Below are positions 23,872 through 34,245 of a stretch of 64,000 nucleotides of DNA, in pieces (the stretch's first letter is position 1; each line of letters begins with the position of its first letter). Source of the DNA: a virus. Its lineage: Duplodnaviria; Heunggongvirae; Uroviricota; Caudoviricetes. The translations under genes were made by a program, and so were the position numbers. The stretch lies in IMG/VR virus record IMGVR_UViG_2721755676_000001; one strand, 5' to 3'. The notes under the pieces are model-generated. The model was not told the DNA's origin, did no database searches, and was given only the letters and a program-made list of their open reading frames with translations.

Positions 23872-26800
23872 ATGTGGTACAGGGAAGGTACTATCACATT
23901 TACACAGGGCAGCAATACTCTGGTTGGGGCAGGGACAGCCTGGAACGTAACAGCTAATGGTGTGTTGCCGGGGATGATCGTCATTGGCCCCGACAATAAG
24001 CTGTATGAGATCAAGCGCGTAACCAGTGATACGAACATTGTTCTCTCAGAACCTTATACCGGCGAAACTCAGTCTGAAGTTCCGTGCCGAATCATTACGA
24101 CCTATGAAGGCGACTTAACACAGTTTAGCGCGCGCTTTACTGCGCTAATGTCGCGTATGTCGGCTGATTCCAAGTCCATACGCAGTTGGTTGACTGCGCT
24201 GGATGAGGTGACAATCGAGCGTGAAGACGGTACAGAAGTGACCGTTAAGCCGCTAATGCAGATCGCCAACGAGCACAACGAAAACGTTGAGTGGTATAAA
24301 AATAACACTGACGCGATTGATGCTGCTGGCGACAAAGCTCGTGAGGCGGCGGCCAGTGCTGCCGCAGCAGCAAAAAGCGCCAATGCCGCTGGAGAAAAAG
24401 CCTCTCAAGCGTCTCAAAGTGCATCCGCTGCGGCATCCTCACAAAGTGCCGCAAGTGCGAGTGCAACTGCTGCGAAAAAATCTGAAACGAATGCTGCAGC
24501 GTCACAAAAATCTGCAGCCACTTCTGCATCCACCGCGACCACGAAGGCGTCAGAAGCTGCCACCTCAGCCCGGGATGCGGCGGCCTCAAAAGAGGCAGCG
24601 AAATCATCAGAAACGAACGCATCCTCAAGCGCCAGTAGTGCCGCTTCCTCGGCAACGGCGGCAGGAAATTCCGCGAAGGCGGCAAAAACGTCCGAGACGA
24701 ACGCCAGGTCTTCTGAAACGGCAGCGGGACAGAGCGCCTCAGCTGCGGCAGGCTCAAAAACAGCGGCTGCGTCGTCTGCCAGTGCCGCGTCAACAAGTGC
24801 CGGGCAGGCCTCAGCCAGTGCCACCGCCGCCGGAAAATCGGCAGAAAGTGCCGCATCGTCTGCTTCAACAGCCACAACGAAGGCTGGCGAAGCCACTGAA
24901 CAGGCCAGCGCAGCAGCGAGGTCTGCTTCCGCAGCGAAGACATCCGAAACGAACGCGAAAGCGTCGGAAACCAGCGCAGAATCCTCAAAAACGGCTGCCG
25001 CATCGTCCGCCAGTTCGGCGGCGTCATCGGCATCATCGGCGTCTGCTTCAAAAGATGAGGCGACCAGACAGGCGTCAGCAGCGAAGGGCAGCGCCACGAC
25101 GGCATCCACGAAAGCAACAGAGGCGGCAGGCAGTGCGACGGCAGCATCTCAGAGCAAAACTGCTGCTGAATCCGCTGCGACTCGTGCGGAAGCTGCTGCT
25201 GATCGTGCTGAAGAGATTGCCGGTGCAGTTGCGATGGAAGACGCAAGCCTTACAACTAAAGGTGTTGTGAAACTTAGCAGTGCTGTCGACAGCACCAGTG
25301 AATCGCTGGCCGCAACGCCAAAAGCAGTTAAAGCAGCCAATGACAATGCGAATAGCAGGGTGCCATCTAACCGAAAAGTTAACGGTAAAGCACTGACTGC
25401 GGATATCAAATTAACGCCGAAAGATATTGGTACTTTAAATTCAGTAACGATGTCTTTCTCTGGCGGGGCAGGGTGGTTCAAACTGGCTACGGTTACCATG
25501 CCACAAGCGAGTTCCATCGTTTACATCGCATTGATTGGTGGCGCTGGTTACAACGTCGGCTCCCCACATCAGGCAGGCATTTCAGAACTGGTTCTACGAG
25601 CAGGCAATGGAAACCCCAAAGGGATTACAGGTGCTTTGTGGAAGCGTACAGCTGTCGGATTAACGAATTTCGCCTGGATCAACACATCCGGCGATACATA
25701 TGATATTTACGTTGAGATTGGCAATTATGCGACTCGTGTAAATATCCATTGGGATTGTACTGCAAATGCGACAGTTTCTATTTATACCTCGCCAACATAT
25801 TCAGCGAGTAAGCCTTCCAGCGTTACCGATGGTGTTGTTTATACGATGTATAGCACACATCAGAAACCGACGCCGTTAGATATTGGAGCACTGCCAACAA
25901 CCGGAGGAACAGTTTCAGGTCCGTTGTCTGTTACAGGTGGATTAACTGGTTCATTGAATGGTAATGCAAGTACAGCCACGAAATTGCAGACGGCAAGATC
26001 TATCGGTGGAGTTGTTTTCGACGGTTCTGCAAATATTAACCTTCCAGGTGTAAACACTACGGGTAATCAGAACACCACTGGTAATGCTGCAACTGCTACA
26101 AAACTTCAGACTGCAAGAAAAATATCCGGTGTTCCATTTGATGGTTCTACTGATATCACTTTAACCGCTGCGCATGTTGCCGCTTTCGCAAGAAGGGCAA
26201 CAGGGTCATATGCGGATGCTGATGGTGGCGTGCCGTGGAATGCTGAATCTGGTGCTTACAATGTAACTAGAACAGGCGACAGTTATATTCTTGCCAACTT
26301 TTATACCGGTGTAGGTAGTTGCCGGACCCTGCAGATGAAGGCGCATTACAGAAATGGAGGTCTGTTCTACCGTTCCTCAAGAGATGGCTATGGTTTTGAA
26401 AGTGGTTGGGAGCAGGTTTACACGACTGGATTTATGCCTCAGCCGGCTGATATAAACGCGCCAACCGCTGCCGCTGGATGGTTAAATAGTGGTAACGGAA
26501 CGGCATTTACGACTGCTCAATTTATAACTTGGCTAAATAATCAGGGGGCATTTACAAACAAACATTGGATCGCACGGTGCTCATGGGCTTACGCCAACAA
26601 TAATTATATAGACGACACTGGTTGCGGTAGGATCGATCTATCTGGTTCCGTGATTGAGGTGTTTAGTAATAAGGCAACAAGCCACTACACTATTCGTGTT
26701 ACAACGACAACAACATCGGGTCATGGTGGTGTTAACAATGCGGAATTTATTTATGTGTACAATGGAAGTGATTATGCACCAGGCTGGCGTCGTTCTTATA

Positions 26801-28170
26801 ACACTAGAAACAAACCAACAGCTTCTGATGTAGGAGCATTATCGCTTTCTGGAGGAGCGTTAACTGGCGGATTAACTGCTGCTGGCGAGATTATTTCAAA
26901 ATCGGCGAATGGTCTGCGCATTGCCTACGGAAACTACGGATTCTTTATCCGAAACGATGGTTCAAGCACATACTTCATGTTGACCGATTCGGGTAACAGC
27001 CTGGGAACCTATAATAGTTTAAGGCCGCTTATCATTAACAATGCCAATGGTGCTGTTAGGATCGGTAATGGACTCAATGTTACTGGCGGCATCAATGGTA
27101 GTTTGAACGGTAATGCTTCAACAGCTACGAAGTTGCAAACAGCGAGAAACATCAATGGTGTTAAGTTTGATGGTTCAGGCGATATCAACATTAATACATT
27201 GGTATCTCGTGGCCGAGTTACGGCGTTAAGCGGCTCTACTCAAGGCACTGCTGGCATTCAAATGTATGAGGCGTACAACAATAGCTACCCGACCACGTAT
27301 GGCAACGTATTGCACATGAAAGGTGCGAGTGCTGCTGGTGAGGGCGAGTTGCTTATTGGCTGGAGTGGTACGAGCGGTGCACATGCGCCAGTTTTCATTC
27401 GCTCACGAAGAGATAACACAGGTGCAGCATGGTCAGCGTGGGCGCAGGTATATACCGCTAAGGATTCAATCCCTGGTGTGAATACAACTGGTAATCAGAA
27501 CACTACTGGTAATGCCGCAACCGCCACAAAATTGCAGACAGCAAGGAAAATTGCTGGTGTGGCGTTTGATGGCTCTGCCGATATAACTTTGACTGCGGCT
27601 AACCTTAATGCTTACACGAAAACAGAGGTAGCAAACCTTCTAAGCTCCTATGCAAGCAGATCATCACTGACAGGCTATAGTGGCAACCTGGATATTGTTG
27701 CTGAAACACTGGTTGTCAAATCAGGCGGTAGTGGAGGGTTTGCTATATGGGATATTGGCACAACTACTAGCGGTGCCAATATGTACATTGATCCAAACCC
27801 AGGTATCAATACAGTTTGGCGTTCAACGTCTTCAAGGCGCTATAAAAAGGATATTGAAACATTACAAGATCGATATGCTGATGAACTTTTGTCATTAAGA
27901 CCTGTTTGGTATCGTTCAATTTGTCGAGGTGACCGAAAGGATTGGGGGTATTACGGCCTTATTGCTGAAGAGGTTGGTGAGATTGCCCCGCAATATGTCC
28001 ATTGGCGTGAACCAACAAATAATGATTCTCCAGAAGATATTTCCTCAAATGGTATGGTCGCTGAAGGAGTGATGTATGAGCGTTTGGTTGTACCACTCAT
28101 TCATCATATTCAGCAATTGACCAAAAGGGTTGAGGAGCTTGAAACGAAGTTAAATTCACCTAAAGAATAA
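23872..28170 (+). CDS. side tail fibre protein (Stf-like) with C-terminal intramolecular chaperone (peptidase S74-like) domain
   Basis: Long Ala/Ser/Thr-rich segment (ASEAATSARDAAASKEAAKSSETNASSSA...) as in lambdoid Stf; repeated NTTGNQNTTGNAATATKLQTARKI modules; C-terminal SSRRYKKDIETL..GYYGLIAEEV; AAGGAG RBS. Confidence 0.85.
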   Translation: MWYREGTITFTQGSNTLVGAGTAWNVTANGVLPGMIVIGPDNKLYEIKRVTSDTNIVLSEPYTGETQSEVPCRIITTYEGDLTQFSARFTALMSRMSADSKSIRSWLTALDEVTIEREDGTEVTVKPLMQIANEHNENVEWYKNNTDAIDAAGDKAREAAASAAAAAKSANAAGEKASQASQSASAAASSQSAASASATAAKKSETNAAASQKSAATSASTATTKASEAATSARDAAASKEAAKSSETNASSSASSAASSATAAGNSAKAAKTSETNARSSETAAGQSASAAAGSKTAAASSASAASTSAGQASASATAAGKSAESAASSASTATTKAGEATEQASAAARSASAAKTSETNAKASETSAESSKTAAASSASSAASSASSASASKDEATRQASAAKGSATTASTKATEAAGSATAASQSKTAAESAATRAEAAADRAEEIAGAVAMEDASLTTKGVVKLSSAVDSTSESLAATPKAVKAANDNANSRVPSNRKVNGKALTADIKLTPKDIGTLNSVTMSFSGGAGWFKLATVTMPQASSIVYIALIGGAGYNVGSPHQAGISELVLRAGNGNPKGITGALWKRTAVGLTNFAWINTSGDTYDIYVEIGNYATRVNIHWDCTANATVSIYTSPTYSASKPSSVTDGVVYTMYSTHQKPTPLDIGALPTTGGTVSGPLSVTGGLTGSLNGNASTATKLQTARSIGGVVFDGSANINLPGVNTTGNQNTTGNAATATKLQTARKISGVPFDGSTDITLTAAHVAAFARRATGSYADADGGVPWNAESGAYNVTRTGDSYILANFYTGVGSCRTLQMKAHYRNGGLFYRSSRDGYGFESGWEQVYTTGFMPQPADINAPTAAAGWLNSGNGTAFTTAQFITWLNNQGAFTNKHWIARCSWAYANNNYIDDTGCGRIDLSGSVIEVFSNKATSHYTIRVTTTTTSGHGGVNNAEFIYVYNGSDYAPGWRRSYNTRNKPTASDVGALSLSGGALTGGLTAAGEIISKSANGLRIAYGNYGFFIRNDGSSTYFMLTDSGNSLGTYNSLRPLIINNANGAVRIGNGLNVTGGINGSLNGNASTATKLQTARNINGVKFDGSGDININTLVSRGRVTALSGSTQGTAGIQMYEAYNNSYPTTYGNVLHMKGASAAGEGELLIGWSGTSGAHAPVFIRSRRDNTGAAWSAWAQVYTAKDSIPGVNTTGNQNTTGNAATATKLQTARKIAGVAFDGSADITLTAANLNAYTKTEVANLLSSYASRSSLTGYSGNLDIVAETLVVKSGGSGGFAIWDIGTTTSGANMYIDPNPGINTVWRSTSSRRYKKDIETLQDRYADELLSLRPVWYRSICRGDRKDWGYYGLIAEEVGEIAPQYVHWREPTNNDSPEDISSNGMVAEGVMYERLVVPLIHHIQQLTKRVEELETKLNSPKE

Positions 28171-29752: not shown

Positions 29753-30445
29753 ATGAAGACTCCGAGAGGCATTCGTAATAATAACCCCGGTAATCTTGAT
29801 AAAGGATCACCGTGGCAAGGTCTGGTTGCGAATCCAGACGAACCGCGCTTTTGCACGTTTAAAGACCCTGTTTGGGGGATTCGTGCGCTGGCGGTGACTC
29901 TAATTACCTACCACGATAAACGTCGCGCAAAAGACGGCTCAAGTATCGATACCATTCGTGAAGTTATTGAACGCTGGGCACCGCCGAATGAAAACAATAC
30001 TGACGCCTACATTAATGAGGTGTCTAAAGCCGTTGGTGTAACCGCAGACATGATCATCGATCTGCATGATTACGACATCCTTCGACCTTTGGTTGAGGCA
30101 ATCATTCGCCACGAGAATGGCCGAGGCCCGCTAAAAACGCTGAACACCTGGTATGCGGCAGAAGTTATTGAGGAAGGTCTGCGTCGAGCTGGCGTTGTTA
30201 AGCCGGTGAAAACCGTGAAGGCTGTTCCTGTAACTAAAGAAACCGCAGGCGCAACTGTTACAGCAGGTATTGGTCTGGCGCAGCTGGCCGATGTTATGCC
30301 GCAGGTTTCCGCTGCTATGGATAAAGCACAAGGTCATATCTCTAGCGGGGATACAGTACGCATCATCTTCGGTATTGCCACTATTGTTGTGGCAGGATTC
30401 ATTGCCTGGTCGCAGGTAAGAAAACACCAGAAAGGGATGGTCTAA
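29753..30445 (+). CDS. putative endolysin / cell-wall-active protein with C-terminal membrane anchor (family not recognised)
   Basis: ATG 29753 with CAGGAG RBS; conserved-looking N-terminal GIRNNNPGNL block; C-terminal TM IIFGIATIVVAGFIAW; sits between holin-like and spanin genes. Confidence 0.4.
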   Translation: MKTPRGIRNNNPGNLDKGSPWQGLVANPDEPRFCTFKDPVWGIRALAVTLITYHDKRRAKDGSSIDTIREVIERWAPPNENNTDAYINEVSKAVGVTADMIIDLHDYDILRPLVEAIIRHENGRGPLKTLNTWYAAEVIEEGLRRAGVVKPVKTVKAVPVTKETAGATVTAGIGLAQLADVMPQVSAAMDKAQGHISSGDTVRIIFGIATIVVAGFIAWSQVRKHQKGMV

Positions 30446-30446
30446 T

Positions 30447-30698
30447 ATGCTAGGCAGCCTGATGACAAAGCTAAAAGTTGCTTTGATTACGCTGGCTGCC
30501 GTTCTTTTCGTTCTGGTCGGCGCTTACACGATGGGCGGAAATGCGGCGCGACGAGCAATGGAAGAGAAGGCAAAACAGGAAGACAGGAAACGACTTCAAA
30601 GCACAGTGGATGTCAAAAATGAAACGGTTAATGAAGTGCGGCAAAAAGATGCCTCTGGTGTTCATCGCGAGCTGTTTGATAAATGGGTGCGTGATTAA
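30447..30698 (+). CDS. i-spanin (Rz-like), N-terminal TM plus charged helical periplasmic part
   Basis: N-terminal TM VALITLAAVLFVLVGAY followed by charged region; o-spanin-like lipoprotein ORF overlaps in another frame. Confidence 0.6.
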   Translation: MLGSLMTKLKVALITLAAVLFVLVGAYTMGGNAARRAMEEKAKQEDRKRLQSTVDVKNETVNEVRQKDASGVHRELFDKWVRD

Positions 30699-30846
30699 GA
30701 CGCAGGCTCCAGGCGTGCTATTCTGCGATGCTGCAAATCCTATCTATGTGAGTAGAGAGGATTTTATGACTGAGGAAACGGAGCGACAGTTGCTTATCCA
30801 CAATACGATAGGTGAAAGGCTGTGTGAGTGGGGGCACCTGAACTGA
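30619..30846 (+). CDS. o-spanin (Rz1-like lipoprotein), overlapped architecture
   Basis: Starts inside i-spanin in the +1 frame and extends beyond it; MKRLMKCGKKMPLVFIASCLINGC has signal peptide and lipobox-like NGC; start codon uncertain (30610/30619/30631). Confidence 0.45.
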   Translation: MKRLMKCGKKMPLVFIASCLINGCVIKTQAPGVLFCDAANPIYVSREDFMTEETERQLLIHNTIGERLCEWGHLN

Positions 30847-31070
30847 GTCGATGATTGATGAGTGGTCTCAGTTTACCTTTTATCCTAAAGATGGCATCTT
30901 CACTCATATACACGCCTGTTCACTCAAGCTCATGTTGAATCATTTAGTAATTTGATGTAGATTTATTAGGCATCCACGTAAGTGGGCACATACAGGCTAC
31001 GCATCCTCGTAGCCTTCAACCCCGAGAGGGGTGCCGCAATGACACTTGTGTTAACGGCTAAGGTGGATAT

Positions 31071-31490
31071 ATGCTAAATTATCATGACAATACGCGTTCT
31101 ATGCAGACGATCCGCACCAATACTGCGGTCATCGACAGCTTTCCTATGCGTATTCACAACAGTGAAGACGCAGTAGAAGTGCGACGTATGTTGTGCCGTG
31201 AATCAGCTAACCGCCAGCACTTCATCGTCACTTTTAAGAGCGATGTGGCGCGTGCCGAAAAGATCTCTAATTCTACGTCACTGGTTAAACCGTTGGCCGA
31301 GGTTGTCGCTAACGGTAAACGAACCTCTTTTGTTTTAGATGTTGCTGAACAATATCCTGACTTGAAGTGTTTAGATCGTGATATTTCTTCACGAATCAAA
31401 CAAGTTGTAGAGTCTTTTATGAAGAAATTCTGTAAAATCGATGATATGGAACCATCAACGGCACAGAATACTTCATGGCACCATCTCTAA
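31071..31490 (+). CDS. hypothetical protein (first gene of two-gene cargo operon)
   Basis: AAGGTGGA RBS; preceded by 220-bp AT-rich non-coding region. Confidence 0.5.
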   Translation: MLNYHDNTRSMQTIRTNTAVIDSFPMRIHNSEDAVEVRRMLCRESANRQHFIVTFKSDVARAEKISNSTSLVKPLAEVVANGKRTSFVLDVAEQYPDLKCLDRDISSRIKQVVESFMKKFCKIDDMEPSTAQNTSWHHL

Positions 31491-32248
31491 TTGGTCAGGC
31501 GAACAGATTAATCCCTGAAATAGAAGACTACAGCAAGGTCTTGTCTGAAATGCCGAGAGCGACGAGAATTATCGCTCTCGGTGAGTTCTATTTTATCTCC
31601 CGAGGTTTCGATCTAATTCGATTTACCGAATACGAGCTTGTTGATTCGGCCTATGAACGCTGTATTGTTGGCGAGTGTCTTGAGTCATGTGATCCTGATT
31701 ACCAAGAGCAGGAAGTTAAGCGACTCAAACGTGCTGGTTACACACCTCTTGAGATAGGAGCAGAAATTGAATCCTACAAGTTGCATGTGGGGCAGCCAGT
31801 CCAAACAGTCTTCCGCGTGGCCTACTGCGAGTTTCCAATCAAGGATAAATCTGGAGTAAAAGTCAGCGCCAAGCAGATTAGAGGGGTTTTTACTCATGCT
31901 GATTATATGGGATTAGGCATCGCAAGTTTTGCTTACCTTTATCTCGTAGATAAGTATCAGTACTTGGTTTGCGATACGTTACAGACGGTAAAAGGCGCAA
32001 CTCTTTGGGCTGTGAGTATGCGCAAACATGGACTGGTCGAAATTTACGATACGAAGAACGAAAATTTTATAGAGGAATTGGGTGAGGATGCCTGTGGCGT
32101 AAGTGGTTTTATTCCGTGGGATATCGGTAAGTCTGACGGAGGCCAGATGCGAAGACGTGAAGAGTGGGGGACTAATAAAATCAATCTCACCCCAGGTGCT
32201 TGTACTCATATAGTGAACATTCTGACTAAACGATCTATGAATCAATAA
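31475..32248 (+). CDS. hypothetical protein, possible GNAT-like fold
   Basis: Overlaps upstream gene by 16 nt; segment IRGVFTHADYMGLGIASFAYLYLV weakly GNAT-like; followed by intrinsic terminator. Confidence 0.45.
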   Translation: MAPSLIGQANRLIPEIEDYSKVLSEMPRATRIIALGEFYFISRGFDLIRFTEYELVDSAYERCIVGECLESCDPDYQEQEVKRLKRAGYTPLEIGAEIESYKLHVGQPVQTVFRVAYCEFPIKDKSGVKVSAKQIRGVFTHADYMGLGIASFAYLYLVDKYQYLVCDTLQTVKGATLWAVSMRKHGLVEIYDTKNENFIEELGEDACGVSGFIPWDIGKSDGGQMRRREEWGTNKINLTPGACTHIVNILTKRSMNQ

Positions 32249-32249
32249 A

Positions 32250-32269
32250 CCCGCTACGGCGGGTTTTTT
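32250..32269 (+). terminator. intrinsic terminator (CCCGC-TACG-GCGGG + TTTTTT)
   Basis: GC stem plus 6-T run immediately after stop at 32248. Confidence 0.7.
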
Positions 32270-32397
32270 GTTATTAAGCCCCCCCTATGTACCTATCATT
32301 AAACCTTTACACCGCAGCCGTAGGCATTTAGGCTATATCACATATAAGAAAACAAGTTGTTTCAGACGATAATTATATACGCAAAGGGAACTCTCCA

Positions 32398-33066
32398 ATG
32401 ACCAAGATCTTTGTGGTTGGCGGCACAAAGGGCGGGCCTGGCAAATCCACCGTTGCCCAGCAAATTGCCGTTTGCCTGAAAGTCAAAAAGAAGAAGAAGG
32501 TTTATATTACCGATATAGATATTCAGCGCACGACAACGAGCTGGTGTGAAGACCGTCGACAGAACGAAGACCTTGAGCTGATTCCTTTTGCATACGTTCA
32601 GGATGACATCATTAAGCACCTAAAATCGCTTCAGGGTAGAGCTGAGTTTGTAGTGGTAGATGCTGGTGGCTTCGACTCCGAAATTCAGCGACAAGCGATG
32701 CTGATGGCTGACGTTATCATTATCCCGCTGCGTCCTAAGCGTCGTGATTTGAAATCTTTACGTGACATCGATCCTATTATCGACAATGTTCGCAATGTAA
32801 ACGATAAAGTGAAGGTCCGCGCGGTCATGAACCAGTGCCCGGCTTTGCCATCACAAGTGTCTCGCATTCTGGCGGCTAAAGAGATTGTTGAGACGTTTGG
32901 AATCGAGTCTGCGCCAGTCAATCTATATAACCGCAACGTCTATGATGATGCGGAAGAGTCTGGTCGTTCTATCTTTGAAATGACCGGTAGCGAGCGCGAC
33001 AAAAAGGCGGAAGCCGAGTTTGAAGAATTTGTAGATTATCTGTTGAGTCTGGAGGAAGAAGAATAA
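32398..33066 (+). CDS. ParA/MinD-family partition ATPase (small type Ib-like)
   Basis: Deviant Walker A GGTKGGPGKST at N-terminus; 222 aa without N-terminal HTH; AAAGGGA RBS. Confidence 0.8.
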   Translation: MTKIFVVGGTKGGPGKSTVAQQIAVCLKVKKKKKVYITDIDIQRTTTSWCEDRRQNEDLELIPFAYVQDDIIKHLKSLQGRAEFVVVDAGGFDSEIQRQAMLMADVIIIPLRPKRRDLKSLRDIDPIIDNVRNVNDKVKVRAVMNQCPALPSQVSRILAAKEIVETFGIESAPVNLYNRNVYDDAEESGRSIFEMTGSERDKKAEAEFEEFVDYLLSLEEEE

Positions 33067-33425
33067 TGTCCATGAAAATGGGTGACCTAGCAAAGCGCAA
33101 AGAGCCTGATGCACCGGCTAAGAACACAACTCCTTTGCGCCAACCAGTCAGACCACAGGGACGCCCGACTCGTGGCAAAGAGAAAATTAAAAGCCGCACA
33201 ATGTCACTGGAGGACGAATACTTCGAACTGCTGGAGATGATGAAGTTCATCCCTCGCTTCGAGAAGTTCACTCGTTCTGACGTGATTCGAGCAGCCATTT
33301 TCCATCTGGCAGAGAAGTCACCGCAGGAAATCGAGGACATCGTGAAATTGAATGAGGCGATCACCGCTGCCGATGTCACGATGCGTACCGATGAAATCAA
33401 ACGAGAGTTGATGAAGAAAGGTTAA
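33066..33425 (+). CDS. small ParA partner protein (putative ParG/ParB-like centromere-binding protein)
   Basis: 119-aa basic protein translationally coupled (TAATG) to the ParA-like gene; role inferred from synteny. Confidence 0.45.
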   Translation: MSMKMGDLAKRKEPDAPAKNTTPLRQPVRPQGRPTRGKEKIKSRTMSLEDEYFELLEMMKFIPRFEKFTRSDVIRAAIFHLAEKSPQEIEDIVKLNEAITAADVTMRTDEIKRELMKKG

Positions 33426-33477: not shown

Positions 33478-34245
33478 TTATGCCGCGCTAACACTATGTT
33501 CAGTCCTAACCACCCCAACCTTCACAAAAGGGCTACCGTAGCTTGGTGGCTTCTTGATTAATTTGCCTACATACAGTTTTCTAATATGCTCATCGGCTAT
33601 TCTGCCAACAAATTCATAACGTTTTGTGTCGGGGCCAAGAGCTATATCCCTTGTAAAGTACTGCTGAGAACCGGCTTTGACCCAGCATTCAATCTGATAA
33701 ACTTCCATTATCAGCCCACCATATGTAGCGTAGGCATATTTGAGATTCTCGTCTCTTGGAACCTTTGCCCATACGCCACGCGTAGCTTCATATAATGCCA
33801 GAGCGGACATTCCTGACTTGTAGGTGCTGTTTAGCAGGAAGGCAAGACCGGCGTGCTCAGGAGCAATTTCAGTTTCCTCTTGCAGCACTAAGTGATGGTA
33901 GGCGTCCAGTGATATTCTGCCCATCATGGAACCACTTCCTCGTACCTTATTCGTAAGCTCTCCGACCCCCATAAGGTCGATGCATGTCGCCTCAACAAGT
34001 TTGGCTGTGGTTTCATCCATACCATGACGAAGTATATCTATGCCTAATTTTTTATTAGCCAAAAGTTCTTTGATCCGCATGGATTTGGGAGAGTCATCGG
34101 GATACTTGATGTGATCGAGACAACGAGTCGATTTGCCTTTTCCTATGTAAAACGGTCTTTTCATCTTGTCTTCTGTATCATAGAGACAGTAAACATAGTA
34201 TTTAGCCTTATCCAATGATCTCGCGTATACCGATAAATCGTCCAT
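33478..34245 (-). CDS. GIY-YIG domain endonuclease (homing-endonuclease-like)
   Basis: N-terminal YYVYCLYD...PFYIGKGK matches GIY-x10-YIG; lone minus-strand gene among plus-strand genes. Confidence 0.75.
   Translation of the reverse strand: MDDLSVYARSLDKAKYYVYCLYDTEDKMKRPFYIGKGKSTRCLDHIKYPDDSPKSMRIKELLANKKLGIDILRHGMDETTAKLVEATCIDLMGVGELTNKVRGSGSMMGRISLDAYHHLVLQEETEIAPEHAGLAFLLNSTYKSGMSALALYEATRGVWAKVPRDENLKYAYATYGGLIMEVYQIECWVKAGSQQYFTRDIALGPDTKRYEFVGRIADEHIRKLYVGKLIKKPPSYGSPFVKVGVVRTEHSVSAA

Follow-up and report, generated by a model that had tools for sequence, protein, structure and literature searches.

The 64,000-nucleotide stretch of viral DNA analyzed here (IMG/VR record IMGVR_UViG_2721755676_000001), called the window below, belongs to an SSU5-type phage-plasmid of E. 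coli and carries, in the slot between its spanin genes and parA, two overlapping genes that we call ORF-A and ORF-B (A and B for their products). The DNA around this locus matches Salmonella phage SSU5, the Escherichia phages PhiR41_1, Cyrano, and CMS-2020a, and ~110-kb non-mobilizable E. coli plasmids. An initial annotation, made from the sequence alone, had described the pair as a self-contained cargo operon with a structured promoter region and a terminator, and re-derivation of the coordinates, flanks, and terminator confirmed this description overall. The full transcription unit (30935-32272, ~1.3 kb) consists of a promoter, a leader, ORF-A, ORF-B, and a terminator. From its genomic context and the fold of B, we infer that A/B is most likely a toxin-antitoxin (TA) or anti-phage module of a kind not yet described. 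The unit and its flanks contain the following features.

30935-30963, + strand: sigma-70-like promoter (-35 TTGAAT at 30935-30940, 17-nt spacer, -10 TAGATT at 30958-30963)
30970-31070, + strand: structured 5' leader of ~100 nt, hairpins H0 to H3 and then the Shine-Dalgarno sequence
30974-30985, + strand: leader hairpin H0, CCAC-GTAA-GTGG, 5'-terminal and variable in sequence among leaders
30995-31014, + strand: leader hairpin H1, GGCTACG-CATCCT-CGTAGCC in the window; GCUACG-CAUNNU-CGUAGC among leaders, stem and loop nearly invariant
31020-31031, + strand: leader hairpin H2, CCCC-GAGA-GGGG in the window, with stem variants among leaders of CCCC/GGGG, CCUCC/GGAGG, CUUCC/GGAAG, UCUCC/GGAGA, and CCCU/AGGG
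31033-31058, + strand: leader hairpin H3, outer stem GCCG/CGGC (GCUGAG/CUCAGC in Pectobacterium), with a variable inner hairpin at 31040-31053
31060-31067, + strand: invariant Shine-Dalgarno sequence AAGGTGGA
31071-31490, + strand: ORF-A, 139 aa, partner protein (candidate neutralizer or regulator), PHROG phrog_2594
31475-32248, + strand: ORF-B, 257 aa, divergent GNAT-fold acyltransferase-like protein (candidate effector or toxin), PHROG phrog_3307
31475-31490, + strand: 16-nt A/B overlap, the stop region of A on the start of B (ATGGCACC...)
32247-32272, + strand: intrinsic terminator, 8-bp G+C-rich stem, GCTA/CGGC loop region, T-run
30447-30846, + strand: left flank, Rz and Rz1 spanin genes of the lysis cassette, by synteny with the annotated SSU5, Cyrano, and PhiR41_1 records
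32398-33425, + strand: right flank, parA (32398-33066; Pfam ParA/MipZ/AAA_31 matches) and a small partner ORF (33066-33425)

Both genes have the lengths given in the initial annotation and overlap, as it stated. The overlap measures 16 nt, which implies translational coupling, and is the same in most alleles; PhiR41_1-type genes abut. The claim of a strong terminator also held: the hairpin at 32247-32266 with its T-run folds at -15.8 kcal/mol (z -3.4), none of 200 shuffles folds equally well, and it starts at the stop codon of B. Most other copies of the module also have a terminator directly 3' of B. Upstream, the holin, endolysin, and Rz/Rz1 genes end at 30846. A scan of the interval from Rz1 to the promoter of the module (30847-30934) gave no terminator-like site, and late transcripts of the lysis genes may continue into the A/B operon. 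The non-coding stretch before ORF-A measures 224 bp (30847-31070), close to the 220 bp proposed, but it is not particularly AT-rich (GC 0.44 versus 0.466 for the window). Of the two hairpins described in it, one stands exactly at 30995-31014 and the other is real but lies one base to the left of the 31021-31032 given for it; the leader contains four hairpins rather than two. Transcription probably starts near 30970. The promoter pattern TTGNNN-17-TAGATT is conserved 5' of the pair in every context examined (SSU5-like, P2-like, Rouxiella prophage, and Pectobacterium chromosome) and falls below the threshold of a strict consensus scan.

The content of the slot varies among closely related elements. 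We collected 80 SSU5-like loci by means of a ParA anchor, and in the 79 that have both flanks the slot holds the following.

42/79 loci: a TacA1-like antitoxin (PF08681, 3.5e-26) and a GNAT toxin of ~175 aa (PF00583)
30/79 loci: the A/B pair
3/79 loci (L160, L162, L165): an unassigned ORF of ~400 aa, - strand
2/79 loci (L182, L186): an unassigned, acidic ORF of 183 aa
2/79 loci: empty (about 306 nt)

This bears out the description of the pair as cargo, since occupancy differs in near-identical backbones and the commonest alternative is a canonical TacA/GNAT-toxin pair. A/B shows variable occupancy of a fixed slot, together with a promoter and terminator of its own, as hotspot cargo or morons of temperate phages do. 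The initial annotation was right about the flanking lysis and partition genes and wrong in implying an insertion specific to this genome, as prototype SSU5 has a homologous pair of 140 and 249 aa (the second read from an overlapping start) in the same slot. PhiR41_1 likewise carries a homologous pair (132 and 258 aa), and Cyrano has a KacT-type GNAT toxin with its antitoxin on the opposite strand. At least seven deeply diverged A/B alleles occur among the carriers, with B proteins 27-38% identical to that of the window, and the backbones that carry them match the window at 99-100% identity in endolysin, Rz, ParA, and the partner ORF; this indicates cassette exchange at a hotspot rather than a one-off insertion. 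When the window is compared with its sibling L037, nucleotide identity is ~90-100% up to the start codon of A, drops there to ~40%, and recovers at ~32320. In PLSDB, 17 plasmids have the window allele and 51 more share only its first 229 nt, which correspond to the leader. Among 5,426 complete E. coli genomes, 17-19 have the window allele on a ~110-kb plasmid. Contigs with its proteins number 638 for B and at least 1,000 for A; other A/B alleles are commoner still. The ~400-aa and 183-aa ORFs are uncharacterized candidate cargo between Rz and parA, and the former gave no Pfam or PADLOC match other than a faint NTF-like one (E 0.0036).

SSU5-like plasmids are not the only carriers of the whole set of promoter, leader, A, B, and terminator. 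It recurs in prophages, P2-like and other, and in islets on Pectobacterium and Rouxiella chromosomes, which agrees with the self-contained nature claimed for the unit. In P2-like elements, the pair lies between gpA and the portal gene, where it adjoins a PARIS-like AriA/AriB pair (L010), between gpA and the terminase gene (L031), or between gpV and gpS (L029 and L030). It is found among accessory genes of a Rouxiella myovirus prophage (L007), in another prophage (L021), beside an acyl-CoA dehydrogenase gene at the Rouxiella Mn2063 locus (L012), and as two-gene islets between core genes of Pectobacterium chromosomes (rsmI|LigB and tldD|LysR). The region of P2 from gpA to cos/Q is a documented reservoir of anti-phage systems (PMC9122126). 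ORF-A lies directly 5' of ORF-B in 43 of 44 loci, the sole exception being a decayed B fragment. On the Winslowiella arboricola chromosome (L014, 6001-6264), the module has apparently decayed, as what is left is an 87-aa remnant of the last third of B, not preceded by an A gene.

The weak likeness of the second protein to GNATs that had been proposed from its sequence holds at the level of the fold. B has the GNAT core, with a mixed beta-sheet, alpha1-alpha4, and the beta4/beta5 splay, and AtaT and TacT are among its structural neighbors. A profile search with B against 1.84 billion representatives returned only 75 clusters at E<=1e-3; its weak tail consists of Pfam-positive GNAT domains aligned over beta4-alpha3-beta5-alpha4, and the matched proteins themselves match PF00583 or PF13508 (E 1e-7 to 1e-4), which links B to GNATs indirectly. 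In this alignment the M-G-L-G-I-A of the window's B falls on the R-G-x-G-x-A acetyl-CoA loop that binds pyrophosphate at beta4/alpha3. Relative to motif A (Q/R-x-x-G-x-G/A), B of the window and the family consensus, E-(Q/K)-K-G-L-A, keep G4 and A6 and have lost R/Q1. The family has features of its own, namely a D-x-x-Q-T-x-x-G-A-x-x-W signature and a PWD motif; the N-terminus of B, MAPS(L/I)I, is conserved. Its invariant residues are R114, Y117, Q134, G137, Y154, D167, Q170, T171, G174, A175, W178, Y191, W215-D216, and W231, of which D167, Q170, T171, G174, A175, and W178 lie around beta5/alpha4. Such clustering is more suggestive of a conserved active site than of a domain in decay.

Protein A is predicted (pLDDT 78.5) to form an alpha+beta domain followed by a long C-terminal helix, a fold other than ribbon-helix-helix (RHH). 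Its relationship to B is best seen in the way in which alleles are inherited. The A proteins of the window and of the SSU5 type are 85% identical over residues 1-80 and 33% identical over the remainder, and the B proteins are 37% identical; a nucleotide breakpoint lies inside ORF-A at about 31240-31300. Among 378 allele pairs, none combines an identity above 75% in the C-terminal half of A with one below 45% in B, and none shows the reverse combination; in 12 of the 378, the N-terminal half of A is similar and B dissimilar. Identities in the C-terminal half of A correlate with those in B at r(A_C,B) = 0.95. With no mismatch among the pairs, B and the C-terminal half of A behave as a single specificity unit in inheritance, a pattern that contact between this part of A and B would predict. 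Purifying selection acts on both genes (dN/dS 0.04-0.21), so their allelic diversity is old and maintained. The idea that A is a paralogue of B was rejected (hhalign probability 0.1%). Both proteins are named "hypothetical protein" throughout the databases and fall in PHROGs of unknown function, and sequence searches against the PDB gave no match for either family.

The leader preceding the pair is a candidate for a new cis-regulatory RNA motif, and covariation supports it. Folded singly, ~24 distinct leaders give the same series of hairpins, and a covariance model built on 18 leaders finds one site in the 64-kb window (30991-31076, 84.7 bits) and recovers the leaders of all canonical loci and, with weaker scores, divergent leaders. 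Across 26 distinct leaders, the hairpins show compensatory changes: in an alignment fitted to the covariance model, 87% of alignment cells pair, compared with 27-59% for slid partners, double changes occur in 16 of 20 base pairs compared with at most 6 in slid controls, and none of 500 shuffles reaches the observed values. The frequent G-U pairs on the + strand argue that the leader acts as RNA rather than as a DNA palindrome. When the leader pattern was searched for in IMG/VR, an A homologue came next in all 41 true matches; a further true leader (L059) runs off the end of its contig, and the other 27 matches were due to chance. H3 ends 1 or 2 nt 5' of the invariant GCUAAGGUGGA-N3-AUG, so that the tandem hairpins are placed like the cis-regulatory leaders and operator hairpins of phage mRNAs, and the near invariance of the stem and loop of H1 is as expected of a protein-binding RNA. 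The leader matches no Rfam family: within 30400-32500, cmscan at E<=1 returned nothing but a chance match of rsmX to the terminator. ARAGORN found no tRNA in the leader.

Pairing between the leader and the start region of ORF-A was also considered. A closing stem sequestering the Shine-Dalgarno sequence, which would make a four-way tRNA-like junction, was rejected as a general feature, as the upstream/Shine-Dalgarno duplex energies of 24 leaders are no better than those of shuffles (mean z about 0; p<0.1 in 4/24). In the window allele, AUCCAC (30972-77) is complementary to GUGGAU in the Shine-Dalgarno region. An alternative RNAalifold structure pairs the invariant GCAU with AUGC, which spans the start codon and one base of codon 2, its first, and pairs GCCU with AGGU of the Shine-Dalgarno sequence; all of its bases are invariant, so it offers no covariation, and we keep it as an idea only. 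The AUGC at the start of A (within 31071-31076 in the window, and at homologous starts) is complementary to the invariant GCAU of the H1 loop. In 27 of 29 distinct leaders, the first base of the second codon of A is C, although this codon specifies Leu, His, or Arg, which may reflect a constraint on the start region at the RNA level. Use of H0 as an allele-specific operator for A is unlikely, since the window and L037 have identical leaders in front of A alleles that share only 39% identity. At L035 (5474-5620), the leader has a duplicated H3-like segment (GCCGGAGAGGCCAATGTGGCCCACGGCT / GCTGGAGAGGCCAATGCGGCCCACAGCT), with the covariance-model match upstream of the expected position; this leader may be rearranged.

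A/B is most readily compared with the type II TA systems that pair a GNAT toxin with an RHH antitoxin (TacAT, AtaRT, KacAT, and ItaRT). Like these, it is a two-gene operon in which a small partner comes first and is coupled to a GNAT-fold second gene, it is carried by plasmids and prophages, and it shares a slot of SSU5-type elements with a TacA1/GNAT-toxin pair. It differs in that A is not a TacA/DUF1778 RHH protein and has no recognizable DNA-binding domain, in that B has 257 aa rather than about 175 aa, with extra N- and C-terminal parts, and misses the Pfam GNAT models, and in its conserved four-hairpin leader RNA, a feature that, to our knowledge, is not known for such systems. Because A is not an RHH antitoxin, we do not place A/B in this family, although it may work in a similar way. 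In being a compact, self-promoted cassette found between gpA and portal or terminase genes and once adjoining AriA/AriB, A/B resembles the defense cargo of P2/P4 and prophage hotspots, such as PARIS (Rousset et al. 2022, PMC9122126), but it has no sequence relation to any PADLOC-DB v2 model. With GNATs in general (NatD/Naa40, AAC(2'), and Rim enzymes), B shares the core fold and a G-x-A remnant of the pyrophosphate loop; it is set apart by a sequence identity of only 6-13%, the missing R/Q of motif A, its own signature and PWD motif, and its obligate partner gene.

The reading that we favor, tentatively and at close to an even call, is that the mobile self-contained module is a non-canonical TA-like system with a GNAT-fold acyltransferase effector that serves plasmid addiction, abortive infection, or both. 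This proposal follows from its interchangeability with TacAT beside the partition genes, its presence in P2 defense hotspots, the coupling and coadaptation of its two genes, and the GNAT fold of the putative effector. In a lysogen, the operon would be transcribed from its own promoter, and the leader would set mRNA stability or the translation of A, possibly by being bound by A. A would keep B inactive through its C-terminal helix (residues ~96-120), perhaps by contact at the acyl-CoA or substrate cleft of B. If the supply of A failed, upon plasmid loss or upon shut-off by an infecting phage, B would acylate an essential target, most plausibly a translation component such as aminoacyl-tRNA by analogy with TacT and AtaT. 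Growth would then stop, stabilizing the phage-plasmid and/or aborting infection by competing phages.

Several observations weigh against a TA-like system of this kind. Neither protein has a match in Pfam or NCBIfam: B has no Pfam match at E<=1 and no match to an Acetyltransf_* GNAT model, and A matches neither PF08681 nor any RHH/TacA or other DNA-binding domain, unlike the true TacA1 of sibling plasmids, with its score of 3.5e-26 against PF08681. The loss of the motif-A R/Q and the presence of Trp where the alpha4 Tyr is usual mean that catalysis by B is not assured. B is also ~80 aa longer than TacT-type toxins. Three A and three B alleles found no match in PADLOC-DB v2.0.0 at E<=1, and literature searches covering SSU5, pHCM2, PhiR41_1, GNAT defense, and P2 hotspots turned up no description of the pair. 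The sharing of a slot with TacAT shows that the cargo is interchangeable and not that its function is identical. It is also conceivable, though rather unlikely, that A/B is a three-part RNA-protein-protein system of a new class, in which the leader is a working component rather than only a 5' untranslated region. For instance, A might bind this RNA as a measure of its own abundance, or the RNA might serve as a sensor or decoy governing when a GNAT effector with a new target is released.

The nearest rivals to a TA-like system are a two-component defense that is not a TA system and a benign modifying or immunity enzyme. The former is a serious if minority possibility: A would sense a phage cue and B would be the effector, with both needed and neither toxic alone, a logic like that of PARIS. 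It would account for the presence of the module in P2 defense hotspots, once beside PARIS itself, for chromosomal islets with their own promoter, and for deep allelic variants in identical backbones, as expected of immunity genes. However, SSU5-type plasmids exchange the module mainly with a classical TA pair beside their partition genes, the tight coupling and the co-inheritance of the A C-terminus with B suit neutralization as well, and no PADLOC model matches. That B is instead a non-toxic modifying enzyme for lysogenic conversion or self-immunity, acetylating a small molecule (an antibiotic, a microcin-like toxin, or a polyamine) or a host protein, A being the subunit that presents the substrate or regulates the enzyme, we consider unlikely. 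Metabolic or resistance enzymes do not usually show a deep allelic radiation with strict co-inheritance such as that of B and the C-terminal half of A, the module shares its slot with TA pairs, and the family is confined to mobile-element hotspots in Enterobacterales.

Two further explanations give A/B a role in the life of the phage. AcrVA5 acetylates and inactivates Cas12a, and B could act in counter-defense by acetylating and inactivating a host immune protein. The phage-borne location, GNAT fold, and high allelic diversity would be in keeping with this, but the module also stands as an islet between core genes of chromosomes, away from any phage and under a constitutive-type promoter of its own, and it lies in loci known for defense rather than in early-gene regions; we therefore regard counter-defense as quite improbable. 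A housekeeping accessory of lysis or partition in SSU5-type phages is suggested by the position between the lysis and par genes and by the homologous pair in prototype SSU5, yet this explanation is scarcely tenable. The slot survey contradicts it, since TacAT or other ORFs replace the pair in 47 of 79 relatives and it is absent from 2, and the pair occurs in unrelated phages and chromosomes. The possibility raised in the initial annotation that both proteins belong to phage housekeeping families is thus not borne out, the pair being dispensable and its PHROGs without assigned function.

The surroundings of the module in the window yielded further observations. Past the par genes, positions 33478-34245 (- strand) encode a 255-aa protein with a LEM-3-like GIY-YIG nuclease domain (PF22945, 5.5e-7); Cyrano and SSU5 have different genes at this position, which makes it a second variable slot. 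The 119-aa ORF after parA (33066-33425, + strand) is labeled "RelE/ParE putative toxin" in Cyrano (CYRAN_29). It has no Pfam match and stands at the expected place of a ParB-like partner, and the public label looks doubtful. The 1432-aa tail-fiber protein encoded at 23872-28170 (+ strand) contains a long low-complexity tract rich in Ala, Ser, and Thr (about residues 150-470) and repeated collar-like "NASTATKLQTAR" motifs.

Clinical E. coli, Shigella, Salmonella, and Klebsiella commonly carry SSU5-type phage-plasmids. Since the module measures only 1.3 kb and has its own promoter, it can be cloned directly for toxicity, stability, and phage-challenge tests. If A/B is indeed a GNAT toxin system, it would represent a second, structurally distinct solution for the addiction or defense slot that TacAT fills, with a new partner protein, a larger GNAT, and a dedicated leader RNA, and it would provide a natural experiment on why GNAT effectors are favored in that slot.
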